49,813 bases of DNA from a virus. Positions within the stretch are counted from its first letter, which is position 1. The number at the start of each line of letters is the position of its first letter. Of this stretch, positions 10,272-49,813 are shown piece after piece. A program made the translations under genes and the position numbers. Under the pieces are notes generated by a model. The model did not search any database. It worked only from the letters and a program-made list of their open reading frames with translations, and was not told the origin of the DNA. Location: positions 1 through 49,813 of IMG/VR virus record IMGVR_UViG_3300037245_003366, one strand, 5' to 3'.

Positions 10272-10517
10272 ATGAAAGAAAGAACTGAAAAGCAGAAGGT
10301 GGCGTATGCAAGGAACTTTGGGAAATTTAAGTTAAAAGGGGTTAAGGCTCTTTTGAAGAATTTATCAACGGAGAAGAATCTTACTCACGGGGAAGGATTT
10401 TCTTTGCTTATGGTTATAAAACAGATTGATAAGAATCTTTTGGATCATTGGGATTTGAATAATAAAGATTTTTTTGGATTAGGGAAGAGGAAGGAGTTTA
10501 AAAATGTTCAACTGTGA
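10272..10517 (+). CDS. Hypothetical basic protein (81 aa)
   Basis: ORF with GAGGGG upstream. Confidence 0.5.
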   Translation: MKERTEKQKVAYARNFGKFKLKGVKALLKNLSTEKNLTHGEGFSLLMVIKQIDKNLLDHWDLNNKDFFGLGKRKEFKNVQL

Positions 10518-11424
10518 TAATCAATTATTATGTGATGTGGAAACGTGCGACGCGGCAGGGATTGCAAGACATTGCTTGGGGGTAAGAGGGTTAGGGGAGA
10601 AGCTTGCGGCGGATATGGGGAATTGTTATCATGCTGCGTTGGAGGAGCATTTTCGAGGTAAGGGGAAGGCGAAGGTGATGCAGATTTTTGAGATTGAATA
10701 TGATAAGTTGGTGCCGATTGGGGAATTTCCGAGTGAGCCGAGGTTTGCGAAGCCAAATGTTATGATGATAATGGAAAGGTATGTGGATGTGCATCCTTTG
10801 GAGAAATTTCCTTTTGTGGCGTTGGAATGGGAGGAGACAAAGGGATTGAAGTTGAGTGAAGAGGTTATGTTCTGGGTTAAAAGGGATATGTTGGTGGAGG
10901 ATAGGATAAGTGGGTTAAGAGAGCCGCTGGATCATAAGACAACCGGGAAGGTGACAGATTGGTGGATAAAGAAATTTAGACATAGTAGTCAGTTTAGTGG
11001 GTATATTTATGTGACTGGAGAGTTGGAAAAGATGCCTTGTGAGAGTATTTACGTGAATGCCTTGGAGATAGGGAAGTTGCCGGATAGTACGAGAAAGTGT
11101 AAGACGCATGGAGTTAAGTATAGTGAGTGTAGTAAGGAACATGCGAAGTTTGATCTGTTGAGATATTCAAGGACGAGAAAGCAGTTGGATAAATGGAAAG
11201 AAGATGCGCTGGCGATTGCGAAGAAAGCAGAGATATTGTTTAAGATATTCGCGGATATTGATTTGTTGCAGTATGCAAGGAGGAATGGAAGTTTTAATAA
11301 TGGGTGTACGTTTTGTGAGTTTAAGGGATGGTGTTTGATGGGGTTTAAAAAGGAAGGGATGGAGGAGTTTGTTGTGGGGGAGAGGTGGGAGCCTTGGAAG
11401 GGAAAGGCGATTGAGGCTGTATGA
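10504..11424 (+). CDS. Cas4/RecB-like PD-(D/E)XK exonuclease with a putative Fe-S Cys cluster (306 aa)
   Basis: N-terminal Cys residues, LDHKTTGK, SSQFSGYIYV (QxxxY-like) and a C-terminal CTFCEFKGWC (CX2CX5C). Confidence 0.65.
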   Translation: MFNCDNQLLCDVETCDAAGIARHCLGVRGLGEKLAADMGNCYHAALEEHFRGKGKAKVMQIFEIEYDKLVPIGEFPSEPRFAKPNVMMIMERYVDVHPLEKFPFVALEWEETKGLKLSEEVMFWVKRDMLVEDRISGLREPLDHKTTGKVTDWWIKKFRHSSQFSGYIYVTGELEKMPCESIYVNALEIGKLPDSTRKCKTHGVKYSECSKEHAKFDLLRYSRTRKQLDKWKEDALAIAKKAEILFKIFADIDLLQYARRNGSFNNGCTFCEFKGWCLMGFKKEGMEEFVVGERWEPWKGKAIEAV

Positions 11425-13036: not shown

Positions 13037-13048
13037 AGGAGGGATAAG

Positions 13049-13840
13049 ATGCAATTAAAAACAGGCCAAGTAGGGGAGATTCAGACATATAACATCGGAA
13101 AGCATGAGATACCATACAGGGATGTAATTCATCCGGATGGGGTAATTCGACTCGAATATTTCCACGAAAAAGGGATGGACAGCGCGGAGGCATATGGGAG
13201 GTTCAGGGCGAGGATGGTTTATTTTCAAAATGAGTATGCGAATTGGGCTACGGTAGGAATGGATAGTATGACGCTGGCAGAGTTGAGCGCGAGGAAGCAG
13301 GAGGAGTTGGTGTTGAATCCGAGTGCAAAGGATGCCCGGCAATGGTTTGCGGGGAGTACGTCAGCGATGGAGGATATGTTTATTGTGAGATTTGGCGGAT
13401 TGCCGATGAATGTTGGATTGATATGTCATGTTGATAAAGATCCTGTGATGATTGCAAATGAATGTGTGAGGAATGCGAATGCGAGAGGGAGATTGGGAAG
13501 TCAGGGAATGATTAATGCAGCTTATCAGGAGCAGTATTTCCTATACACTCAACGTGATCAAGAAGGAAATAGACAATTTGCCATGAAGACGGAGAATGAT
13601 GGAAGGCACCAGGCGACTACGCAGATTGGGGCTCCGCATCCCTGTTATCCAAGTTTTAATAGTATTTGGACAGAGTGGGATAAGGGAGATATACCAAGGA
13701 TGCCGATTCATTGTTTGATTTATGGGGATACAGGGACAGGGAAGAGTACGTTTTTAGCGACGTTTCCGAAACCGATGATTGTTTTTTTATTCGATCCTAA
13801 AGGCAAAGACATTCCATTTTGGCATCATTGGGAGGGTTAA
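13049..13840 (+). CDS. Sak4/AAA_24-like recombination ATPase with rotated (circularly permuted) motif order (263 aa)
   Basis: The Walker-B-like segment WATVGMDSMT, then GGLPMNVGLICHVDKD and the C-terminal-type segment PSFNSIWTEW all come before the Walker A block MPIHCLIYGDTGTGKSTFLATFPKPMIVFLFDPKGKD. That block lies at the very C-terminus. Confidence 0.6.
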   Translation: MQLKTGQVGEIQTYNIGKHEIPYRDVIHPDGVIRLEYFHEKGMDSAEAYGRFRARMVYFQNEYANWATVGMDSMTLAELSARKQEELVLNPSAKDARQWFAGSTSAMEDMFIVRFGGLPMNVGLICHVDKDPVMIANECVRNANARGRLGSQGMINAAYQEQYFLYTQRDQEGNRQFAMKTENDGRHQATTQIGAPHPCYPSFNSIWTEWDKGDIPRMPIHCLIYGDTGTGKSTFLATFPKPMIVFLFDPKGKDIPFWHHWEG

Positions 13841-13841
13841 G

Positions 13842-13985
13842 ATGGAAAAAATAAGAAAGTTAATTTGTTTTATTTTTGGGCATAATTTTATGGCGATTAA
13901 AGCAGATAATAATGACCAATCAGTTTGGGGGTGGTTTTATTGTTCAAGATGTGGCTATGAAGAATTTTTTCAATTTGATAAATAA
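13842..13985 (+). CDS. DUF1660-like zinc-ribbon minigene (47 aa), paralog of 9700..9834
   Basis: MEKIRKLICFIFGHNFMAIK....FYCSRCGYEEFFQFDK; GGGAGGG upstream. The start is 1 nt after the ATPase stop. Confidence 0.5.
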   Translation: MEKIRKLICFIFGHNFMAIKADNNDQSVWGWFYCSRCGYEEFFQFDK

Positions 13986-14092: not shown

Positions 14093-14866
14093 ATGACAAC
14101 AGACGCGTATTTTCCGTGGGAAGAGACAAAAGAGGATAATATCTTCCCGACAGGTGTGTATCACTTCAAATGTGATAAAATGGAAGATGGGATGAGTTCG
14201 ACTCAGAAAAGGATGTTCAGAGCGCAGTTTACTTGTAAACAGCCGACTGATTATGCCGGGATGAGTTATTTTGATAACTATGTGGTCGGGACAGAGGAGA
14301 ATCCGACGGGTATCGTGCCGGGAAGTATGGGAACGAGGAGTTTTAAGAAGTTTTTAGTGGCTGCTCAGATTCCGCCGAATAATGATGTGAATCAGTTGAT
14401 GACAGCGGCAGCAGGGACGGAATTGTTGCTAGTGATTACGGCGTTTAAGGAGACAAAGGAAGGGCAGTATAAAGGGGATAACAGAAATAAGATCAATGAG
14501 TATTGTAAGGTTGGAGATAAGGAGATAGGGGTTGCACCTGGTCAGGGAGGGGAAAGTGCACCTGGGATGCCTGTGGCGGCGGCTCCTGTACCTGCGCCGG
14601 TTGCGCCACCTGTGGCTCCGACAGCTCCGGCTGGACCAGCGGCTCCTGAAACTCCTGCGGCTCCCGTTGCGCCGGTAGTTCCTGCGCCGGTAGTACCTGC
14701 ACAGCCAGCAACGAGTCCGGCTCCTGTAGCTCCAGCGGCACCTGCCGCACCGGCGGCTCCAGCAGCAGCTCCCGCAACAGCCTTGACACATAGATGTATG
14801 ATTTGTCAGGCTGATGTACCGGCAGCGGAGTTTGCAGCACATGCACAAGGACATGCGAATCAGTAG
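14093..14866 (+). CDS. DUF669-like ssDNA-binding protein with a long Pro/Ala-rich linker and a C-terminal CxxC..HxxxH finger (257 aa)
   Basis: The N-terminal ~140 aa fit the DUF669 pattern (..IFPTGVYHFKCDKME..RMFRAQFT..GTELLLVITAFKE..). An (A/P/V)-rich stretch of about 90 aa follows. The protein ends ..THRCMICQADVPAAEFAAHAQGHANQ. It sits next to the Sak4-like gene, as in known Sak4-SSB modules. Confidence 0.55.
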   Translation: MTTDAYFPWEETKEDNIFPTGVYHFKCDKMEDGMSSTQKRMFRAQFTCKQPTDYAGMSYFDNYVVGTEENPTGIVPGSMGTRSFKKFLVAAQIPPNNDVNQLMTAAAGTELLLVITAFKETKEGQYKGDNRNKINEYCKVGDKEIGVAPGQGGESAPGMPVAAAPVPAPVAPPVAPTAPAGPAAPETPAAPVAPVVPAPVVPAQPATSPAPVAPAAPAAPAAPAAAPATALTHRCMICQADVPAAEFAAHAQGHANQ

Positions 14867-17622: not shown

Positions 17623-18174
17623 ATGAAAAAATATAATATAATTTATGCTGATCCACCGTGGAGCTATAAAGATAAAAGAGATAAACATCCACGTATTTGT
17701 GGTGGTGCTTTATCACATTATCAAACAATGAATTTAGAAGATATTAAAAAACTAAATCTCCCAACAGATAATAATTGTATGCTATTTTTGTGGGCTACGT
17801 TTCCTAACATGCAAGAAGCATTAGATGTCATAAAAGCATGGGGTTTTACATATAAAACACTTGGTTTCAGTTGGATAAAAACAAATAAAAAGAACGGTAA
17901 ACCATTTTTCGGGATTGGGTATTATACAAAATCTAACTGCGAAGTTTGTTTGATAGGTGTTAAAGGCAAGCCAATAAAGATAAGTAATTATGTTAGTAGT
18001 GTGATAATAGCTCCGAAAGAAACACACAGCAAGAAACCAGATTGTGTCCGTGATAAGATTGTTGAATTGTGTGGTGATATACCAAGGTTAGAAATGTTTG
18101 CGCGTCAAAAAACGGAAGGATGGGATGTGTGGGGGAATGAAGTTAATTTTATTGAAGTAAAAGAGATTAAATAA
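17623..18174 (+). CDS. MT-A70 family N6-adenine DNA methyltransferase (183 aa)
   Basis: Catalytic DPPW motif (NIIYADPPWSYKD), ..MLFLWAT.., ..THSKKPD.., ..RLEMFAR....GWDVWGNE. Confidence 0.85.
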   Translation: MKKYNIIYADPPWSYKDKRDKHPRICGGALSHYQTMNLEDIKKLNLPTDNNCMLFLWATFPNMQEALDVIKAWGFTYKTLGFSWIKTNKKNGKPFFGIGYYTKSNCEVCLIGVKGKPIKISNYVSSVIIAPKETHSKKPDCVRDKIVELCGDIPRLEMFARQKTEGWDVWGNEVNFIEVKEIK

Positions 18175-20063
18175 TGACCTACCAAAAACAACACGTCCCT
18201 TCAGAGGGACCACTGGATGCAAAAGTCATCCTCATAGGAGAGAATCCCTGGGTGAATGAAGTGTCGAATGGGAGGCCATTTGCAGGACAAGCAGGGAATA
18301 AGTTAAAATTCTGGTGGCATGGGACCGGGTTGGATAGGACAAAGATGAGATTGATGAATTTATATCCTTACAAACCTCCGATAGATGATTTAGTATGTGT
18401 GGAAGTGGATGAATTGGGAGAGTGGGTTGGGAAGTTACATGAGAGGATTGGGAGGTTAGAGGAGCCGCATGTGCTTGTGCCGATGGGAAACTATGCTACA
18501 TGGGCGTTGACAGGAAAGGGAAAGGTCAAGGCGGCGTTAAGGAATAAATTCACGCAGGTGGATGATGTAGGAGCGACTGAGGCTGAGAAAAAGGCGGGAA
18601 TTGTTGATTTGCGCGGAAGTTTTTATCCTTATAAGGATGTGAATGGGAGAATTTTAAAAGTTATTCCAATGATTCATCCTAAAGAGGCGTTAAAATGGGA
18701 TAAATGGGATAAGAGATGTAAGAATGATTGGGATAAGGTGGATAGGGAGAAGGAGTTTGGAGAAATAAGGGCGTTGGATAGAAAGCATGTTATTGACCCG
18801 AGTGAGGAGGAGGTTAGGCAGTTTACTGAGACTGTGGAGTATTGGGGGGAAGATGTCATATTATCGATTGATATTGAGAGTTGGGGAAACCAGCTTACAT
18901 GCGTGGGATTTTCACATCGAAAGGATTGGAGTATTACGATTCCGACGTTCGGGAAGAAAGCAGATGTGTTCCTTCCTTATGTTAAGAGGTTGTGTGAGAG
19001 TGCGAGTGAGAAGGTGTTGTGTAATGGATTGTATGATTGGTATTGGTTGGATTATTATAATATACAACTTAGGAATTTCCGATGGGATGTGAGTTTGATG
19101 CATCATGCATTAGATGCGGCGGAGAGTCATAGTTTGAATTTCCTGGCGAGTATTTATTGTCCACATTATGTTTTTTGGAAGGATGAAGCGAAGGAAGCGG
19201 AAGAGATTATTAAATATGCGAAGAAATTGGATGCTCTTTGGGTGTATAATGGATTGGATTGTGTTTATACGAGGGAGTTGTATGATTTGTTGAAGGCGGA
19301 TTTGGAAAGAGAAGGGATGTTGAATTTTTATCTCCAACATTATGCGGGGATGTTGGAGCCGTTATTAAGGACGACACGGCATGGATTTAGGGTGGATAAA
19401 GAAGCTCAGAAGACATGGGCTAAGAAGTTGAAGGGTGAGATGAAGGGGATACATGCGGAATTGAATAAAGAAGCGGGAGAAGAGCTGTTTGCTACTGAGG
19501 AGAAGGGGTATTTGAGGGAGCCAACATTAGAAGAGTGGAAAAGGTTATTCAATTGGTCACAACCACAAAAAGACGCATTAGATATGCAATGGATGAAAGA
19601 TTTCTACTCTCAACCACCAAAAAGTAAAGAAATTGATCGTGAAGTTCGTAAGGAACTTGGATATATAATGTCCGGGAAGAATGCCGGGAAGATCCGGGAT
19701 AAAAAGACAATAGTGAAGAAAGATTTCTCCAATGCAAAGTTGATGGAGTTTTTCTATGAGACGTTGGAGTTGCCAAAGCAGTATAAGTTGAGAAATGGGA
19801 AGAGTGGGAGGAAAAGGACGGTATGTTTGGATGAGGGGGCGATTAGGAAGTTGACGGCAAAATGGCCTAATAAGATAGAAAATTGGGGGAATTTGTTATT
19901 AGCACATAGGGAGAAGAAGAAAGAAGCGGATTATTTAAAGGGGGCATGGGATAAGGATGGGAGGATCAGGTGCGGGTATGGGATGTTGACTGAGGCAGGG
20001 AGGTTGAAGAGTCATAAGAATCCTATGAGGAGAGGGTTTAATTTGCAGAATATTAAGAGGTGA
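18174..20063 (+). CDS. polA: Family A DNA polymerase, N-terminal fragment: UDG-like domain, 3'-5' exonuclease, and start of the polymerase domain (629 aa)
   Basis: UDG-fold motifs GENPWVNEVSNGRPFAGQAGNKL and MIHPKEAL. Exonuclease motifs SIDIESWG, NGLYDWYWL and YNGLDCVYTRELY. The ORF ends ..GRLKSHKNPMRRGFNLQNIKR-TGA, at the conserved NLQNIP box. Its start overlaps the methyltransferase stop. Confidence 0.85.
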   Translation: MTYQKQHVPSEGPLDAKVILIGENPWVNEVSNGRPFAGQAGNKLKFWWHGTGLDRTKMRLMNLYPYKPPIDDLVCVEVDELGEWVGKLHERIGRLEEPHVLVPMGNYATWALTGKGKVKAALRNKFTQVDDVGATEAEKKAGIVDLRGSFYPYKDVNGRILKVIPMIHPKEALKWDKWDKRCKNDWDKVDREKEFGEIRALDRKHVIDPSEEEVRQFTETVEYWGEDVILSIDIESWGNQLTCVGFSHRKDWSITIPTFGKKADVFLPYVKRLCESASEKVLCNGLYDWYWLDYYNIQLRNFRWDVSLMHHALDAAESHSLNFLASIYCPHYVFWKDEAKEAEEIIKYAKKLDALWVYNGLDCVYTRELYDLLKADLEREGMLNFYLQHYAGMLEPLLRTTRHGFRVDKEAQKTWAKKLKGEMKGIHAELNKEAGEELFATEEKGYLREPTLEEWKRLFNWSQPQKDALDMQWMKDFYSQPPKSKEIDREVRKELGYIMSGKNAGKIRDKKTIVKKDFSNAKLMEFFYETLELPKQYKLRNGKSGRKRTVCLDEGAIRKLTAKWPNKIENWGNLLLAHREKKKEADYLKGAWDKDGRIRCGYGMLTEAGRLKSHKNPMRRGFNLQNIKR

Positions 20064-20068
20064 TATTT

Positions 20069-20266
20069 ATGGGTACAATTACCGTACATACAACAGATGA
20101 AGCATTTATTTTAAGGGGGGTTAGAAAGATTATTAGGAAGGATGCAAGGTATAAAGGACTACTTTTTTCTTTAGTAGATATACACCAAAGTACAGAAAAC
20201 TATATAAAATATTTAAAGAAAACAAACAAAAGCTTAAAAAAACAAACTAAGGATCTTACAAGGTGA
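20069..20266 (+). CDS. Hypothetical basic protein (65 aa) inside the polA gap
   Basis: MGTITVHTTDEAFILRGVRKIIRKDARYKG...; AAGAGG is 8 nt upstream of ATG 20069. Confidence 0.45.
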   Translation: MGTITVHTTDEAFILRGVRKIIRKDARYKGLLFSLVDIHQSTENYIKYLKKTNKSLKKQTKDLTR

Positions 20267-20454
20267 TGGGGATGGACGATAAAGAAATCATAACCTTCAA
20301 CTGGTGTCCTGATTGTGGAATTGATATGGATAAGGAAGGGGTAGAGAGAGAGAAGTGCATCCATTGTGGGGAAGGGTATTGTGTGAGGTGTGTTAAGGAA
20401 CATGAGAGTATGTGTGTAGAGAATGCGAGGAATGATTGGACGAGGGGGTATTGA
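20266..20454 (+). CDS. Zinc-ribbon protein (62 aa) inside the polA gap
   Basis: ..WCPDCGIDMDKEGVEREKCIHCGEGYCVRCVKEHESMC..; TGATG overlap with the previous ORF. Confidence 0.5.
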   Translation: MGMDDKEIITFNWCPDCGIDMDKEGVEREKCIHCGEGYCVRCVKEHESMCVENARNDWTRGY

Positions 20455-20457
20455 AGG

Positions 20458-20598
20458 ATGTTTGATAAATGGATAGGATGGTTGATTGAAGCTTCCTTGG
20501 ATGAAGATAAGTGGTTAATATCAGTTGATAGTGTTTATATTCGTTCAAGGTTATGGTGGTCTGTTTATTGGAGAAAAAAGACGAGGAGTGATTATTGA
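20458..20598 (+). CDS. Hypothetical Trp-rich protein (46 aa) inside the polA gap
   Basis: MFDKWIGWLIEASLDEDKWLISVDSVYIRSRLWWSVYWRKKTRSDY; GAAGGATG context. Confidence 0.35.
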   Translation: MFDKWIGWLIEASLDEDKWLISVDSVYIRSRLWWSVYWRKKTRSDY

Positions 20599-20948
20599 TG
20601 AAAATATTAAGAGTATTAGAATATGAGGGAACCGAAGAGTTTATTTCAAGTTGTTTAAAGAATAGAGCTATACGTAATAGATATGAAGTTGGAAACGGAA
20701 TTATACGTGAAGCAATTCTTGGTGGTACTGATGAAGTTTTAAGTCAAATGGAGAATGAAAAAAGTATTATACCCTTAGATGAAAAAGTATTTTTTAGGTT
20801 TTTAAATGGAGAAAGACTTGTTAAAATTGCTAAAGATTTAGATGTATCTTTACCTGCTATAAGAAAAAGAGTATTGCGTTATTGTGGGAGAAAGGGGCTT
20901 AATTATGATAGAATTAAAATCAATTCGCGAAACCTTCCTCCCCGATGA
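20598..20948 (+). CDS. HTH protein (116 aa) inside the polA gap; its N-terminal half is paralogous to 22388..22609
   Basis: MKILRVLEYEGTEEFISSCLKNRAIRNRYEVGNGIIREAILG.. The C-terminal part ..GERLVKIAKDLDVSLPAIRKRVLRY.. looks like a sigma-r4/LuxR-type HTH. AGGAG upstream. Confidence 0.55.
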   Translation: MKILRVLEYEGTEEFISSCLKNRAIRNRYEVGNGIIREAILGGTDEVLSQMENEKSIIPLDEKVFFRFLNGERLVKIAKDLDVSLPAIRKRVLRYCGRKGLNYDRIKINSRNLPPR

Positions 20949-21753
20949 AGGCTGCGTTATGGTACGCTGTGACCTTGCACAAGTAGAGCATAGGATAGGT
21001 TTAATGTATTGTGGGACGGAAAGGTTGATACCTTTAGCGAATGTCCGGCCTGAGACATATGATGCTTTCACGGAAGGAGCGAAAGCGATTTTCGGGGTTG
21101 TGAAGGTTGAAAAGCAAATGAGATATCTGACGAAAAAGGTATTTCATGCGAGTTGGCGACAAATGGGCGGGGAGAAGATGAGTGAGAGTATTTCGAAGGA
21201 TACCGATGGAGGGTTGTTTGTTCCTGCCAGGAAATGTCAGACTTTGATAAATAAGCATTTACAGAATTTTCATGAGATTGAGGAAATTTTCTTTCCTTGG
21301 GTGAGGGAGAGGGTTAGAAATGATGGGGTGTTAGTGAATTCCTGGGGGAGAAGGATGGATTTGAAGCATTGGAGGATAGATGATGATCTTTATAGGAAAG
21401 CATATTCTTTTTATATGCAATCAGATGCGGCAGATTGGACTAATCAGTATGGATTTGTACCGGGGCATTGGTGGATGATGGAGAGGTATGGGAGGCCGTT
21501 GAATGCACAGGTTCATGATGAGGTGATTGCGAGTGTGCCTTTTGAGGATGCTTGGGAGTTTGCAGATTTTATTGTGAAAAGTATGGAGCAGAGAAGGGAA
21601 ATTCCAAAAGGAAGTGGGAATTATTTGACGGTTCCGGCAGGGATTACCGTGGGAAGAAGTTGGGGGGATCAGAAAGGAGTGGAGTTTAAGAGGTTAGAGG
21701 AGAGGGAGGAGTTTTATTTGAAATTATATAAGGAGGGGTTTTATGGATCTTAA
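20905..21753 (+). CDS. polA: Family A DNA polymerase, C-terminal fragment (palm and fingers, motifs A-C; 282 aa)
   Basis: MIELKSIRETFLPDEGCVMVRCDLAQVEHRI (motif A, cf. DYSQIELR), RYLTKKVFHASWRQMG (divergent motif B) and NAQVHDEVIASVP (motif C). ATG 20905 has AAGGGG upstream. An alternative GTG lies at 20884. Confidence 0.85.
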   Translation: MIELKSIRETFLPDEGCVMVRCDLAQVEHRIGLMYCGTERLIPLANVRPETYDAFTEGAKAIFGVVKVEKQMRYLTKKVFHASWRQMGGEKMSESISKDTDGGLFVPARKCQTLINKHLQNFHEIEEIFFPWVRERVRNDGVLVNSWGRRMDLKHWRIDDDLYRKAYSFYMQSDAADWTNQYGFVPGHWWMMERYGRPLNAQVHDEVIASVPFEDAWEFADFIVKSMEQRREIPKGSGNYLTVPAGITVGRSWGDQKGVEFKRLEEREEFYLKLYKEGFYGS

Positions 21754-22986: not shown

Positions 22987-24201
22987 ATGCCAAAAATCAT
23001 CTACCCCGCTCTTCAACATACCACTGACTTCTTCGAACTCTATCAATACATCTGCGGAATTAGTGAGATTCCTTCCGAATATCACTTCTGGTCATCACTT
23101 AGCATAGTCGCTGCATTAGCGGAAGATCATATCTGGTTTGAAAAATTCAAAGGAGAAAAGTTATACCCTAATCTTTATATGATATTAGTTGGGCCGAGTG
23201 GGTTAGGTAAGGGGGGAGCAATTAGCCAGGCTATCCGAGTGGCAGATAGCGCGGTGTATGTTAATCGGTATAGAGGGAAGCTGACGTATGCTCATTTAAT
23301 AGATAAACTCGGGAAGGCCAGTAAGGATGAATGGGGGAGGTTGGTTATAGCGAATCCGAGATTGTTTCTGGTTGCAGATGAATTGAGGAATTCGGTTGGT
23401 ACGAATCAGCAGTTGGTTACGGAGTTGATTGCCTTGTTGACTGAGTTATATACAGCGAGTGGATATACTTTACAAACAGGAACCAGGACGCATGGAAGTA
23501 TTGATATTACAAATCCTGTGGTTAATTGTTTGTTTGGGAGTACGGAGGACTGGTTGAGGTTTGTTATTACAAAGGATATTGCTCAGTCAGGATTCACGGC
23601 AAGAACTTGTTTTGTGTTCGGGAAATATGATTTTGAAAAGAAATGTCCGAGGATTATTTATCCGGATGATTATGAGGAAGTGTATGAGCATATTAAATGG
23701 CGACTCTGGATGATGCAGAATATCCGGGGGAGATGCGTGATGACGAGTAAGGCGGAGGCATTGGAAGATGAGTGGTATATTACAAGGCCAAATCCGAGTG
23801 AGGAGGCGTTGTATTCTACATGGAAAAGAAATCATGATTTGATGTTGAAATTTGCTATGTTGATGTCGTTGGCTGATAAAGGGGATTTGGTAATATGTCA
23901 TAGGCATTTAAAGAATGCTAAAGATATGGTGGATGTGGTTAACGGGCATACGATGAAGTTGATTGAGATGGCAAATGAGACGTGGGAGACGAAGCCGAGT
24001 AATGATATTATAGATTATATAAAAGAGAAGGGGAAGGTTAAGCACTCGGATGCGCTAAGATATTTCAGAACAAAAAAGGGAATGAACGCGAGCAGGTTTA
24101 AGGCTGCGGTATGGGATTTGAAACAGGAAGGGTTGGTGGAATTTGGGAAGAGTAAGACAGGTGGTGTGGTTTATACTTTAGCTATGAGGGGGAGGTTTTA
24201 A
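22987..24201 (+). CDS. DUF3987-like P-loop ATPase (putative replicative helicase or loader) with a C-terminal winged helix (404 aa)
   Basis: Walker A LVGPSGLGKGG, Walker B LFLVADEL, ..VNCLFGST..; the C-terminal ..AVWDLKQEGLVEFGKSKTGGVVYTL looks wHTH-like. Confidence 0.5.
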   Translation: MPKIIYPALQHTTDFFELYQYICGISEIPSEYHFWSSLSIVAALAEDHIWFEKFKGEKLYPNLYMILVGPSGLGKGGAISQAIRVADSAVYVNRYRGKLTYAHLIDKLGKASKDEWGRLVIANPRLFLVADELRNSVGTNQQLVTELIALLTELYTASGYTLQTGTRTHGSIDITNPVVNCLFGSTEDWLRFVITKDIAQSGFTARTCFVFGKYDFEKKCPRIIYPDDYEEVYEHIKWRLWMMQNIRGRCVMTSKAEALEDEWYITRPNPSEEALYSTWKRNHDLMLKFAMLMSLADKGDLVICHRHLKNAKDMVDVVNGHTMKLIEMANETWETKPSNDIIDYIKEKGKVKHSDALRYFRTKKGMNASRFKAAVWDLKQEGLVEFGKSKTGGVVYTLAMRGRF

Positions 24202-40030: not shown

Positions 40031-41899
40031 CTATTGCATTAATCTTGGTGTTAATTCTGCTGGCGGTGGACCGCCTTGTCCAAGAAGACCGAGAAGTTGC
40101 ATAATAGCCTGTTGATCTCCGCCACCCTCTGAGAGGGAATTAAGCTCCTGGTCCATTTCTATTATAAAGGTTGCAGGATCTCGCATTTGATCGAAGGTAC
40201 GAATTGTCCGATCTATCATCTCTCCTGCGCTATTTGCTATTTTCCGAGCTACATCACGAACTTCCGGAGGAGTTTCCGGATTAGCTGCGAGAGTTACAAG
40301 TTCAATTGTTCGTTGGTAGTATTGTGCGAGTATGTTTGTGAGTAAGACAGCATTTTGACGGTCAGCTTCACGGTTGAGAGAAGCGGAAGCAGCTGTTATT
40401 TCTGTTGTAACTTGCTCGTCGAAAGATGGATTTTTGAGAAGGGTGATTACTTTCATTCCATCATCATATCCAAGAATGTTCATTATTGTGGCTTCTGCTT
40501 GTTCTCCTTGTTGTCCACCTTTGAGAAGAATTTCCTGGTAGCGGTAGAGAGCTTGTGAGAGAGAATTAGATATACATATCCTCATACCATCAAAAGCCGG
40601 AACAAATCGTCTATTCACTTGTTGAAGAAAGGAAGTAGCTGTCACGCCAGGAGTACGAGAGGGAATTTTATTTGGTTGAGAGATGTCATTTATCCCTACA
40701 CGCTGGTTTGCGAGTTGCATTGTGATCATTTGATCCTGCCAGATGGAGGAATATACATCACCCATTTCGAGAGCTTTAAGGTCTTCAGAAGGATTAGGAG
40801 TCTGAATATACTTCCCAGGCCACATTTTCATGGTTTCCGGGAGTCCCTCAGAACCTACCCATACACGAGAATTTGCAAGGAGGATGTTGAGAGTTGCGAA
40901 ATTATGGACATCCGATAACTTATCCTCATAAGGAGCCATCATTTGCATTACACCGAGGCCGTAGAACATGTGAGCCCGGAGTTGGTAGACCATTTTTTCA
41001 AGCGGCCGACGATCCATTGGGTTGTATTGGATGGATACTATCTTACGGCCTGAGTGGTTCCAGACTATTTTAAGGTCTTCGTTTATTCCATCACCATCGA
41101 TGTCATAAAAGCAATATACATCTATCAAATCATAAAGTGTATTCTTACGATTTCCCGGTTCTGAATACCTTCCGAGACGTTCACGTTCCGATCTCACCCA
41201 ATCCTTCGCGCCTATTGGTTGAATTCCTTCGATGTTCCATTTGTTTACGGAAGCGAGAGCCTGGATTTCGTTGAGGGTTTTGTAAAAGCGTATCCCAACA
41301 AGAGGGAGTTCTTCTATATTATCTACGCTGCCAACTGTTACAATGCAATCTTCTACCGGGATGCAATAGAAACGTGGACCGGCTGAGAGGACTTTGGCGG
41401 TTTTTGTCTTCTTGGTCTTCTGGACATATGGGGTGTATATGAGGGCTGTTCCGAGTTGGATATCTTCTAGGATTGCAGTCTCAGCAGCTTGGCGGAGGTT
41501 TGCATCCTTTGAACCTGCTATCCAATTGACGAAGCGTTGGAGGGCTTTTCCTTGCTCTACAACGGTATCATCGTCTTTTAATTTCGGAACAGGCCGGACG
41601 GTAGCCAAAGGGGTTGTGTTAAAGATAAGATCAATTGCCTGGGCGTAGATGGTATCGGTTGCGATTGCTCCAACTGTGACTTCAATATTCGGGGCATTTT
41701 CTACAGGGATATCTCGGGAGGTGAGTTTAGGAACTCCCTCATACATACGAAGAGATTCTCTCCAAATTGCTTCAAGAGGTTTGCGAGCCGATGAATAATC
41801 TTCAATTTCGGTGTAAATCCAATCAGAGAGAAATTGCATGGTATCTCCGGGGATTTGGAGAATTTGCTTTTGCTGGTGTTTTTGAAGATATTGAGGCAT
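40031..41899 (-). CDS. Portal protein (622 aa)
   Basis: Size and position at the head of the scaffold-capsid module; N-terminal ..LEAIWRESLRMYEGVP.. An alternative start is M21. Confidence 0.7.
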   Translation of the reverse strand: MPQYLQKHQQKQILQIPGDTMQFLSDWIYTEIEDYSSARKPLEAIWRESLRMYEGVPKLTSRDIPVENAPNIEVTVGAIATDTIYAQAIDLIFNTTPLATVRPVPKLKDDDTVVEQGKALQRFVNWIAGSKDANLRQAAETAILEDIQLGTALIYTPYVQKTKKTKTAKVLSAGPRFYCIPVEDCIVTVGSVDNIEELPLVGIRFYKTLNEIQALASVNKWNIEGIQPIGAKDWVRSERERLGRYSEPGNRKNTLYDLIDVYCFYDIDGDGINEDLKIVWNHSGRKIVSIQYNPMDRRPLEKMVYQLRAHMFYGLGVMQMMAPYEDKLSDVHNFATLNILLANSRVWVGSEGLPETMKMWPGKYIQTPNPSEDLKALEMGDVYSSIWQDQMITMQLANQRVGINDISQPNKIPSRTPGVTATSFLQQVNRRFVPAFDGMRICISNSLSQALYRYQEILLKGGQQGEQAEATIMNILGYDDGMKVITLLKNPSFDEQVTTEITAASASLNREADRQNAVLLTNILAQYYQRTIELVTLAANPETPPEVRDVARKIANSAGEMIDRTIRTFDQMRDPATFIIEMDQELNSLSEGGGDQQAIMQLLGLLGQGGPPPAELTPRLMQ

Positions 41900-49463: not shown

Positions 49464-49813
49464 TTAATGAACTGTCTGACCTCTTTCAGATTGAAAATCG
49501 GCCAATTTGCGCTCAATTAAATGAGCAGGGGTTCTTGTTTTACGGAGGTATGCAGCATATGCCTCCTTTTCTTTGTTCTTTCGATGTTTTAGGGGTCGCT
49601 TCGGAGCAATCCGGATACAAGTCTCCATTGCGTCTACAATATCTTTCGTTACCGCTGTCGGGAATCCTTGCATTTCTGATCTTGCTTCTACTTGATTCTC
49701 CATAAGAAAAAGCCTCCCTTGTAAAATCACAGGCTCAAGACCGGTTCTTATTCGGAAATTCTTCTCTACATTTGTCGGTTGATATACGGGTATCATCTTT
49801 ACTGTCCCGAGTT
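49464..49813 (-). CDS. terL: Large terminase nuclease fragment, 3' part (the same ORF as 1..419; 49687..49813 duplicates 1..127)
   Basis: ..MIPVYQPTNVEKNFRIRTGLEPVILQGRLFLMEN....GFPTAVTKDIVDAMETCIRIA.. has the C-terminal Asp motif (D..DA) of terminase nucleases, followed by a basic tail. Confidence 0.8.
   Translation of the reverse strand, partial: LGTVKMIPVYQPTNVEKNFRIRTGLEPVILQGRLFLMENQVEARSEMQGFPTAVTKDIVDAMETCIRIAPKRPLKHRKNKEKEAYAAYLRKTRTPAHLIERKLADFQSERGQTVH
49687..49813. repeat. Terminal direct repeat, copy 2 (identical to 1..127)
   Basis: Identical over all 127 nt. Confidence 0.95.

Follow-up and report, generated by a model that had tools for sequence, protein, structure and literature searches.

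The ATPase gene and the order of its motifs

The window analysed here is the whole 49,813-nucleotide (nt) stretch of IMG/VR virus record IMGVR_UViG_3300037245_003366, and our subject is an open reading frame (ORF) of 263 amino acids (aa) that lies in it between a PD-(D/E)XK nuclease gene and a gene for a protein resembling single-strand DNA-binding proteins (SSB). We propose, at a probability of about 0.8, that this ORF encodes a single-domain RecA-superfamily ATPase of the AAA_24/Sak4-like kind whose chain is circularly permuted; the features of the gene and its surroundings are collected in Table 1. The Walker A motif (GxxGxGK[ST]) and the acidic Walker B residue D72 are both intact, and their columns are conserved family-wide. 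Read from the N- to the C-terminus, the order is Walker B (residues 66-75), the sensor strand (121-127), the old C-terminal end (200-210) and Walker A (226-234). A first-pass annotation, made from the sequence without database searches, had placed four motif blocks at W66-L79 (with D72), G116-D131, Y200-W210 and M218-D254, the last ending nine residues before the stop, and each is found at these residues; the breakpoint that it had put near position 13690 coincides with aa 211-217 (nt 13679-13699), where the old termini meet.

The N-terminal segment, here called segment B, holds a beta-meander insertion, a helix, the Walker B strand, the sensor strand and the C-terminal core, and is followed, beyond a short linker, by segment A with strand beta1, the P-loop, helix alpha1, strand beta2 and a 'P-F/Y-W' turn. 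The three strands of the meander (residues 12-16, 19-28 and 31-37) have a predicted local distance difference test score (pLDDT) above 90 in the AlphaFold2 (AF2) model of the window protein. In the sensor strand none of the first 24 sequences retrieved deviates at N121 or H127, and the histidine is 99-100% conserved family-wide. Where AAA_24 proteins usually have the 'D-x-E-g-G' box, after beta2, this subfamily reads FDPxGKD (F248-D254, 13790-13810) and does not conserve the Glu. A glutamate of the meander, E36 (13154-13156, in 'IRLEYFH'), is invariant in the first 24 sequences; in 249 sequences its column, number 84 of the profile, shows a conservation of about 90%. Since the box Glu is not conserved while E36 is highly conserved, it is conceivable that the catalytic glutamate has been relocated.

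A search of a 5.8-billion-protein collection returned 24 proteins of 260-280 aa in three arrangements: 12 in normal order, 10 with Walker A near the C-terminus as in the window (cpA, broken after the PYWK motif) and two broken within the beta-meander, about 25 residues further on (cpB). The normal-order homologues are 40-48% identical to the window protein. Rotation of the permuted ones brings all 24 into an end-to-end alignment with no rearrangement; without it, the Walker A block either precedes or trails a common core. Canonical-order orthologues on related contigs, for which the first-pass annotation had proposed a search, were therewith at hand, and the tandem-duplicated orthologue that it had also named was not found among 281 family proteins. 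Searching the isolated phage genomes of INPHARED by tblastn gave no match, and a scan of IMG/VR with the single window protein found nothing.

The permutation itself was tested with a hidden Markov model (HMM) built from 83 normal-order homologues only. Against the native window protein this HMM gives two non-colinear matches, profile positions 46-252 on aa 3-212 (239.5 bits) and profile positions 5-47 on aa 217-259 (69.3 bits), whereas against the protein rotated at residue 217 it gives a single colinear match of 316.5 bits (E 7e-99); a doubled-sequence test agrees with the rotated order. At the nucleotide level, tblastn with the normal-order homologue P0010 finds its aa 55-263 at 13073-13669 (E 3e-58) and its aa 5-43 at 13703-13819 (E 1e-15), in the same frame and in swapped order, and no further copy or relic of the gene anywhere in the 49.8-kb window. 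By BLAST, P0010 and P0001 are 48% identical over 209 aa plus 72% over 39 aa. The new termini of the window protein fall at a loop position of the normal-order proteins, between the 'PYWK' turn and the beta-meander. These matches put the rotated order well outside anything that chance would give. As the colinear match to a normal-order-only profile appears only on rotation, the claim of the first-pass annotation, a circular permutation with one breakpoint, is borne out, and at the level of sequence comparison the ORF is confirmed as a genuine circular permutant. We also looked for a colinear match of the native chain, for a lack of AAA_24 similarity and for a misassembled junction; none of these was found, and the junction recurs in independent assemblies.

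In structural terms, about 47 residues that normally come first (beta1, the P-loop with Walker A, alpha1 and beta2) stand at the end of the chain, at aa 218-263. The linker joins what used to be the two termini, and the new ones are placed in the surface loop that separates the 'PYWK' turn from the beta-meander.

Table 1. Features of the ATPase gene and other genes of the window
Feature	Position	Strand	Basis or remark
Shine-Dalgarno GGAGG	13038..13042	+	6 nt ahead of the ATG; read from sequence
Circularly permuted, putative AAA_24/Sak4-like ATPase, complete ORF	13049..13840	+	263 aa plus stop; ATG start, TAA stop
Segment B, aa 1-210; counterpart of residues ~48-265 in normal-order homologues	13049..13678	+	Profile 46-252 and tblastn match of P0010
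Three-stranded beta-meander, aa 12-37 (QTYNI / HEIPYRDVIH / VIRLEYF), includes E36	13082..13159	+	Predicted strands
Walker B region W66-T75 (TVGMD72-S-M-T)	13244..13273	+	Predicted strand, residues 68-72
Strand N121-H127 (NVGLICH), equivalent of AAA_24 'NVIhhaH' motif	13409..13429	+	Alignment
Linker D211-R217, fusing former C-terminus to former N-terminus	13679..13699	+	Gap between the two profile matches (aa 212, 217)
Segment A, aa 218-263; counterpart of residues ~1-47 in normal-order homologues	13700..13837	+	Profile 5-47, AAA_24, tblastn match of P0010
Walker A / P-loop G226-D-T-G-T-G-K232-S-T234	13724..13750	+	Read from sequence
PD-(D/E)XK nuclease, same recombination module	10504..11424	+	Pfam PDDEXK_1, E 1e-9
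47-aa Cys/His minigene	13842..13985	+	1 nt past the ATPase stop
SSB-like protein, likely partner of the ATPase	14093..14866	+	phrog_378 'single strand DNA binding protein', E 6e-7, aa 12-136
MT-A70 adenine methyltransferase	17623-18174		E 1e-28
DUF3987 primase/helicase-type protein	22987-24201		
SU10-type portal	40031-41899	minus	

Gene neighbourhood and recurrence of the permutation

We compared the window with loci of all three arrangements: normal order (L004, L007, L009 and L010), cpA (L001-3, L008 and L011, besides the window) and cpB (L006). All share one order of genes, namely the PD-(D/E)XK nuclease, at least one small ORF, the ATPase, small ORFs, the SSB-like gene and, further on, UDG-exonuclease-PolA, so that the nuclease lies upstream of the ATPase gene in every locus compared and SSB-like homologues lie downstream of it in cpA, cpB and normal-order loci alike. 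As the flanking proteins are homologous across the three kinds of locus and the neighbourhood is shared, we take the ATPase genes to be positional orthologues that differ in chain topology. The window's own arrangement probably came down to it by descent in a clade of ~50-kb phages whose portal is of the SU10 type.

Bases 1-127 of the window are identical to bases 49687-49813, and this 127-bp terminal overlap indicates that the contig is a circularly closed assembly of a complete genome of about 49.7 kb, whose GC content is 40.8%. A closed contig makes it possible in principle that the junction near 13690 is an assembly chimera, either a misjoin or a wrap-around that set the 5' end of the gene behind its 3' end. 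The gene, however, sits 13 kb from the contig ends, its junction keeps the reading frame and has a linker whose length is conserved, and its flanks are syntenic with those of loci holding the normal-order gene. The cpA arrangement is moreover repeated in 34 protein clusters that are 42-61% identical and come from other samples and assemblers, and one identical cpA protein, P0009, is present on 12 independent contigs (from JGI, ENA and Logan samples, among them contigs of 42.9 and 50.6 kb). We consider the probability of a chimera to be practically negligible.

The same material bears on a second explanation, according to which the ORF is a decaying remnant of a tandem duplication with no ATPase function, aa 1-215 being a dead copy without Walker A and the last 48 aa a fragment of the second copy. 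Duplication followed by truncation is indeed the expected route to a permutant, its intermediates would look alike, and the AF2 model of the window protein is unsure at beta1 and the P-loop. Against this, the arrangement persists over lineages that have diverged to 42% identity, and the Walker A Lys (100% of permuted and 99% of normal-order members), the Walker B Asp at column 120 (93% and 94%), the conserved histidine (His127; 100% and 99%), Gly147 and Glu161 are equally conserved in both groups. The linker is constrained as well: across the fused old termini the spacing between a conserved Trp and a conserved His has a median of 12 residues (interquartile range 11-13) in 67 permutants. In addition, the complete ~49.7-kb genome holds no second intact copy, so that the phage would depend on the permuted one if the function is needed. 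A remnant is accordingly very improbable, and the permuted members, judged by their equally kept conserved columns and tight linker length, are still under selection.

Recurrence was assessed in 260 family members, including the 150 best representatives among the ~1300 hits of one search; all were tested with the family profile as single and as doubled sequences. Normal order was found in 182 and a permuted order in 67; nine are apparent truncations and two carry an insertion. The breakpoints lie at no fewer than five places, all of which map to loops of the P0010 model or to the start of the 'YRDV' strand. In the order of the normal chain they fall between helix alpha1 and strand beta2 (P0074), after 'PYWK' (cpA; 34 clusters including that of the window), immediately ahead of the 'YRDV' strand (P0085, P0107, P0096 and P0109), in the hairpin turn between 'YRDV' and 'IRIEYYH' (cpB; 29 clusters) and between the long helix and the Walker B strand (P0036, P0078 and P0120). 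Five distinct breakpoints imply more than one permutation event. Walker-A-less 'partial' proteins were also considered as evidence of split genes and were rejected; in the case inspected, P0256 (L009 1322-2134), the deposited call of 239 aa starts at an internal ATG, and the real ORF is 270 aa long, with an N-terminal Walker A and normal order. The remaining 'partial' members may be similar artefacts of gene calling.

A neighbour-joining tree of the rotated alignment needs 39 changes of arrangement, and after nodes with less than 50, 70 or 90% bootstrap are collapsed to soft polytomies at least 15, 11 or 9 changes, respectively, are left. For P0075 (cpA) and P0086 (cpB) the nearest relatives are normal-order in every segment, with 100% bootstrap, and identity between permutants and normal-order forms can exceed 50-60% over aligned segments. 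The pair of P0010 (normal order, L010 4311-5120) and P0004 (cpA, L011 1893-2708), which are 66% identical, was tried as proof of a recent independent permutation and rejected, as segment identities reveal P0004 to be a mosaic: over columns 171-215 it is 91% identical to P0010, whereas over columns 48-85 it is 36% identical to P0010 and 71% to the cpA protein P0002. A comparison of the flanking nucleases groups four cpA loci together. Taken from the sequences, the conclusion is that permutation arose repeatedly in nature within the family of the window protein, a multiplicity of independent events that the first-pass annotation had not anticipated.

Family, fold, activity and origin

The family assignment rests on the normal-order homologues, since the AAA_24 score of the window protein itself is under the cut-off. 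All 83 normal-order homologues match Pfam AAA_24 (best E 2.5e-16); P0010 does so at 32.1 bits (cut-off 27) with aa 7-193 on profile positions 4-140, from Walker A through the sensor strand, and five match phrog_124 'Sak4-like' over nearly their full length (E 1e-11 to 1e-16). The first-pass annotation had derived the protein from an AAA_24/Sak4-like family of normal order, and this descent is upheld by the order kept in the other members, by their matches to AAA_24 and by the colinearity of the rotated window protein with their profile.

For P0010, AF2 with an 83-sequence alignment gave a confident model (pLDDT 95.1, predicted template modelling score (pTM) 0.92). Foldseek matched it in the PDB to FlaH, a RAD51-paralogue complex, KaiC, RecA, Dmc1, T7 gp4 and F1/InvC with probability 1.0 and template modelling (TM) scores of 0.35-0.48, and in BFVD to phage proteins labelled 'AAA domain', 'Phage_P_loop' and 'RecA-like recombinase' (E 1e-13 to 1e-8, TM 0.55-0.64); small GTPases were only poor matches (TM 0.17-0.19). 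As modelled, P0010 has a core-only fold like that of RecA, KaiC and the RAD51 paralogues. The elements of the window model come in the order beta-meander, long helix, Walker B strand, two helices, sensor strand, hairpin, two strands, alpha1 and beta2, as in P0010 rotated, and the model is confident at aa 1 to about 130 and at aa 240-262. Because it is unsure at beta1 and the P-loop, the entry of the C-terminal strand into the sheet is inferred, not modelled, and its basis is a homologue with a confident model and 40-48% identity. The fold in three dimensions would then be unchanged, as would the ATP site, with the C-terminal strand and P-loop entering the centre of the sheet beside the Walker B strand that carries D72.

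A number of results speak against this interpretation in one part or another. Pfam AAA_24 matches the window protein only at aa 219-245 (profile positions 2-28) with 23.6 bits, under the cut-off of 27, and PHROG 124 'Sak4-like ssDNA annealing protein' (ssDNA, single-stranded DNA) only at aa 215-249, the start of its profile (E 4e-7); no library family of Pfam or PHROGs matched the first 215 aa. Of the two parts that the first-pass annotation had proposed to compare with AAA_24, the C-terminal one matches the profile start and aa 1-215 gave no match. Rotating the protein brought no gain in Pfam and PHROGs scans, which still found the P-loop only, and it took profiles specific to the family to cover the rest; we ascribe the missed threshold to permutation plus divergence. 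The subfamily is divergent, its box Glu not being conserved (FDPxGKD), and an annealase activity would be an extrapolation. The AF2 model of the window protein, from 24 sequences, reaches only pLDDT 73 and pTM 0.74 and falls below pLDDT 50 at beta1/P-loop (aa 221-229), and Foldseek with this model returned nothing significant. Tree-based event counts are biased upward because intragenic recombination occurs, as the mosaic P0004 illustrates. With regard to a duplication origin, no profile region was matched twice in any of 281 family proteins, and no relics of lost ends were found beside the gene in the window or in nine related loci. A doubled-profile search likewise found no protein matching both copies, a weak negative given that only the 8000 candidates with the most shared words were scored.

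As to activity, we propose that the protein acts like Sak4, by ATP-dependent binding and annealing of ssDNA together with the adjoining PD-(D/E)XK nuclease and SSB-like protein, and that it would serve recombination-dependent replication or repair. It could also be a permuted RecA-fold ATPase other than a Sak4-type annealase, for instance a helicase loader, a replication-initiation ATPase or a mediator. AAA_24 is broad, and the window protein belongs to a divergent branch of it that scores modestly, at 32-61 bits, against AAA_24 and phrog_124, contains a beta-meander peculiar to the family and does not conserve the catalytic Glu usually found after beta2. Searches found no NCBIfam model for this protein and, with the family profile against PDB sequences, trivial P-loop matches only and no homologue; the module also encodes a DUF3987 primase/helicase-type protein and PolA. 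On the other hand, the position between a PD-(D/E)XK nuclease and an SSB-like gene is the classic layout of exonuclease, annealase and SSB, adjacency of Sak4 and SSB is documented (PMC5928155), and the viral proteins nearest in structure carry AAA_24 or RecA-like recombinase annotations. In an annotation of the window that was not exhaustive, and that scanned ORFs of the replication module and large structural ones, we noticed no other recombinase. We therefore hold a non-annealase to be unlikely and retain Sak4-like annealing as the proposed activity.

The permutations could have arisen through in-frame tandem duplication followed by trimming at both ends. The first-pass annotation had suggested this route, with loss of both outer ends; it is plausible and fits the head-to-tail linker, and neither an intermediate nor a relic was found. 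A further thought is that repeated permutation is not neutral, being driven or selected, or that it reflects a gene-specific mechanism of in-frame head-to-tail duplication, which we regard as quite unlikely. If selected, termini moved always on the face of the beta-meander and 'PYWK' could alter a partner surface such as that for SSB binding, or just as well one through which defences recognise the protein, as host or satellite factors directed against phage recombinases might. If repeated permutation were driven, selected or mechanism-made, the family would be the first case in nature of circular permutation serving as a recurrent, fast evolutionary move.

Of the neighbouring genes, that for the SSB-like protein encodes an OB-type N-terminal part, a long Pro/Ala-rich low-complexity stretch and an end of the form C-x2-C ... 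H-x3-H; the SSB of phage HK620 stimulates Sak4 through an acidic tail (PMC5928155), and the C-terminus of the window's protein is not such a tail. The Cys/His minigene stands where the first-pass annotation had put a DUF1660-like zinc-ribbon minigene, one nucleotide downstream of the ATPase, and the DUF1660 label itself is below threshold (E 0.007, 17.2 bits, cut-off 21.4), its other matches being weak zinc ribbons and three PHROGs without known function (E ~1e-3). Related loci hold no homologue of the minigene at the same position, and it is probably not part of the ATPase system.

Further downstream (18174-21753) a family-A DNA polymerase is split. Its first ORF (18174-20063) comprises UDG, a 3'-5' exonuclease and the polymerase up to '...NLQNIKR', and its second (20884-21753) restarts at motif A ('DLAQVEHR') after a gap of about 820 bp that contains small ORFs, among them one with several CxxC pairs (20263-20454) and another (20595-20948) that by eye resembles a helix-turn-helix protein. 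The polymerase is also split in the cpA loci L001, L008 and L011, and is a single ORF of 830-901 aa in L004, L006 and L007; a mobile element may have inserted here, or the polymerase may be split by nature. Among the ten large minus-strand ORFs scanned, seven had no Pfam match.

Comparison with known systems

The nearest known relatives are the Sak4 proteins of HK620, PA73 and 80alpha (PF13479; PHROG 124), which, like the window protein as proposed here, are single-domain, core-only RecA-type ATPases, about 250 aa long and equipped with Walker A and B motifs, and have an SSB gene adjoining them in a phage recombination module (PMC5928155). HK620 Sak4, a RecA homologue reduced to the core, binds and anneals ssDNA in an ATP-dependent manner and is stimulated by the adjacently encoded SSB; ATP-dependent ssDNA binding and annealing are known for this protein only (PMC5928155). 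The window protein differs in that its Walker A lies 30 residues from the C-terminus and not about 10 from the N-terminus, and its subfamily, known here from sequence, has an extra three-stranded beta-meander after beta2 and lacks the conserved Glu of 'D-x-E-g-G'. Sak4-type proteins are of interest for recombineering, and permutants give new termini for fusions.

RadB, KaiC, FlaH and the RAD51 paralogues are core-only members of the RecA superfamily and the best solved-structure neighbours of the P0010 model, yet at TM scores of only 0.35-0.48 and with no detectable sequence similarity beyond the P-loop. To our knowledge all of them are of normal order, and we know of natural circular permutants of P-loop NTPases only among GTPases. 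Full-text searches of PMC and bioRxiv found no permuted Sak4, AAA_24 or RecA-like ATPase and no RecA/ASCE-class ATPase with a C-terminal P-loop strand.

The coexistence of both topologies in the same gene slot of related phages, with cuts in at least five loops and conserved residues kept equally, amounts to a natural experiment. It bears on how a protein folds when the central beta-strand and the nucleotide-binding loop are supplied last, on which loops of the RecA core tolerate termini, and on the speed at which duplication and truncation rewire a protein. There is also a practical side: linear profiles miss about four fifths of a protein of this kind, and Pfam covers only 27 residues of the window protein. 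As profiles are blind to most of the chain, permuted recombinases are probably annotated as hypothetical proteins in phage genomes.

Several motif orders within one enzyme superfamily have been described, with duplication followed by truncation as the usual explanation (review PMC3320104). The permutation classes of DNA methyltransferases, saposin/swaposin and the lectins resemble the present family in this multiplicity; the methyltransferase classes, however, have another fold and are old and deep, whereas permutants of the window family can be more than 50-60% identical to normal-order forms. Closer in kind are the circularly permuted GTPases, YlqF/YawG/RsgA/YqeH with the motif order G4-G5-G1-G2-G3 and cpRAS with G3-G4-G5-G1-G2, the second pattern having been described after a survey had deemed one pattern the sole possible permuted GTPase (PMC2430557). 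They too are natural permutations of a P-loop NTPase in which the P-loop comes late in the chain and the fold is kept (PMC2430557). These are TRAFAC-class GTPases and not ASCE/RecA-class ATPases, and the profile and fold matches of the window family are to AAA_24 and RecA-class ATPases, so that the likeness is one of analogy only. Each GTPase permutation is ancient and fixed family-wide, whereas in the window family at least five breakpoints occur beside normal order in the same gene slot. The window protein is thus a new topological variant of a known family, and the recurrence of permutation among its close relatives is a further unusual feature.

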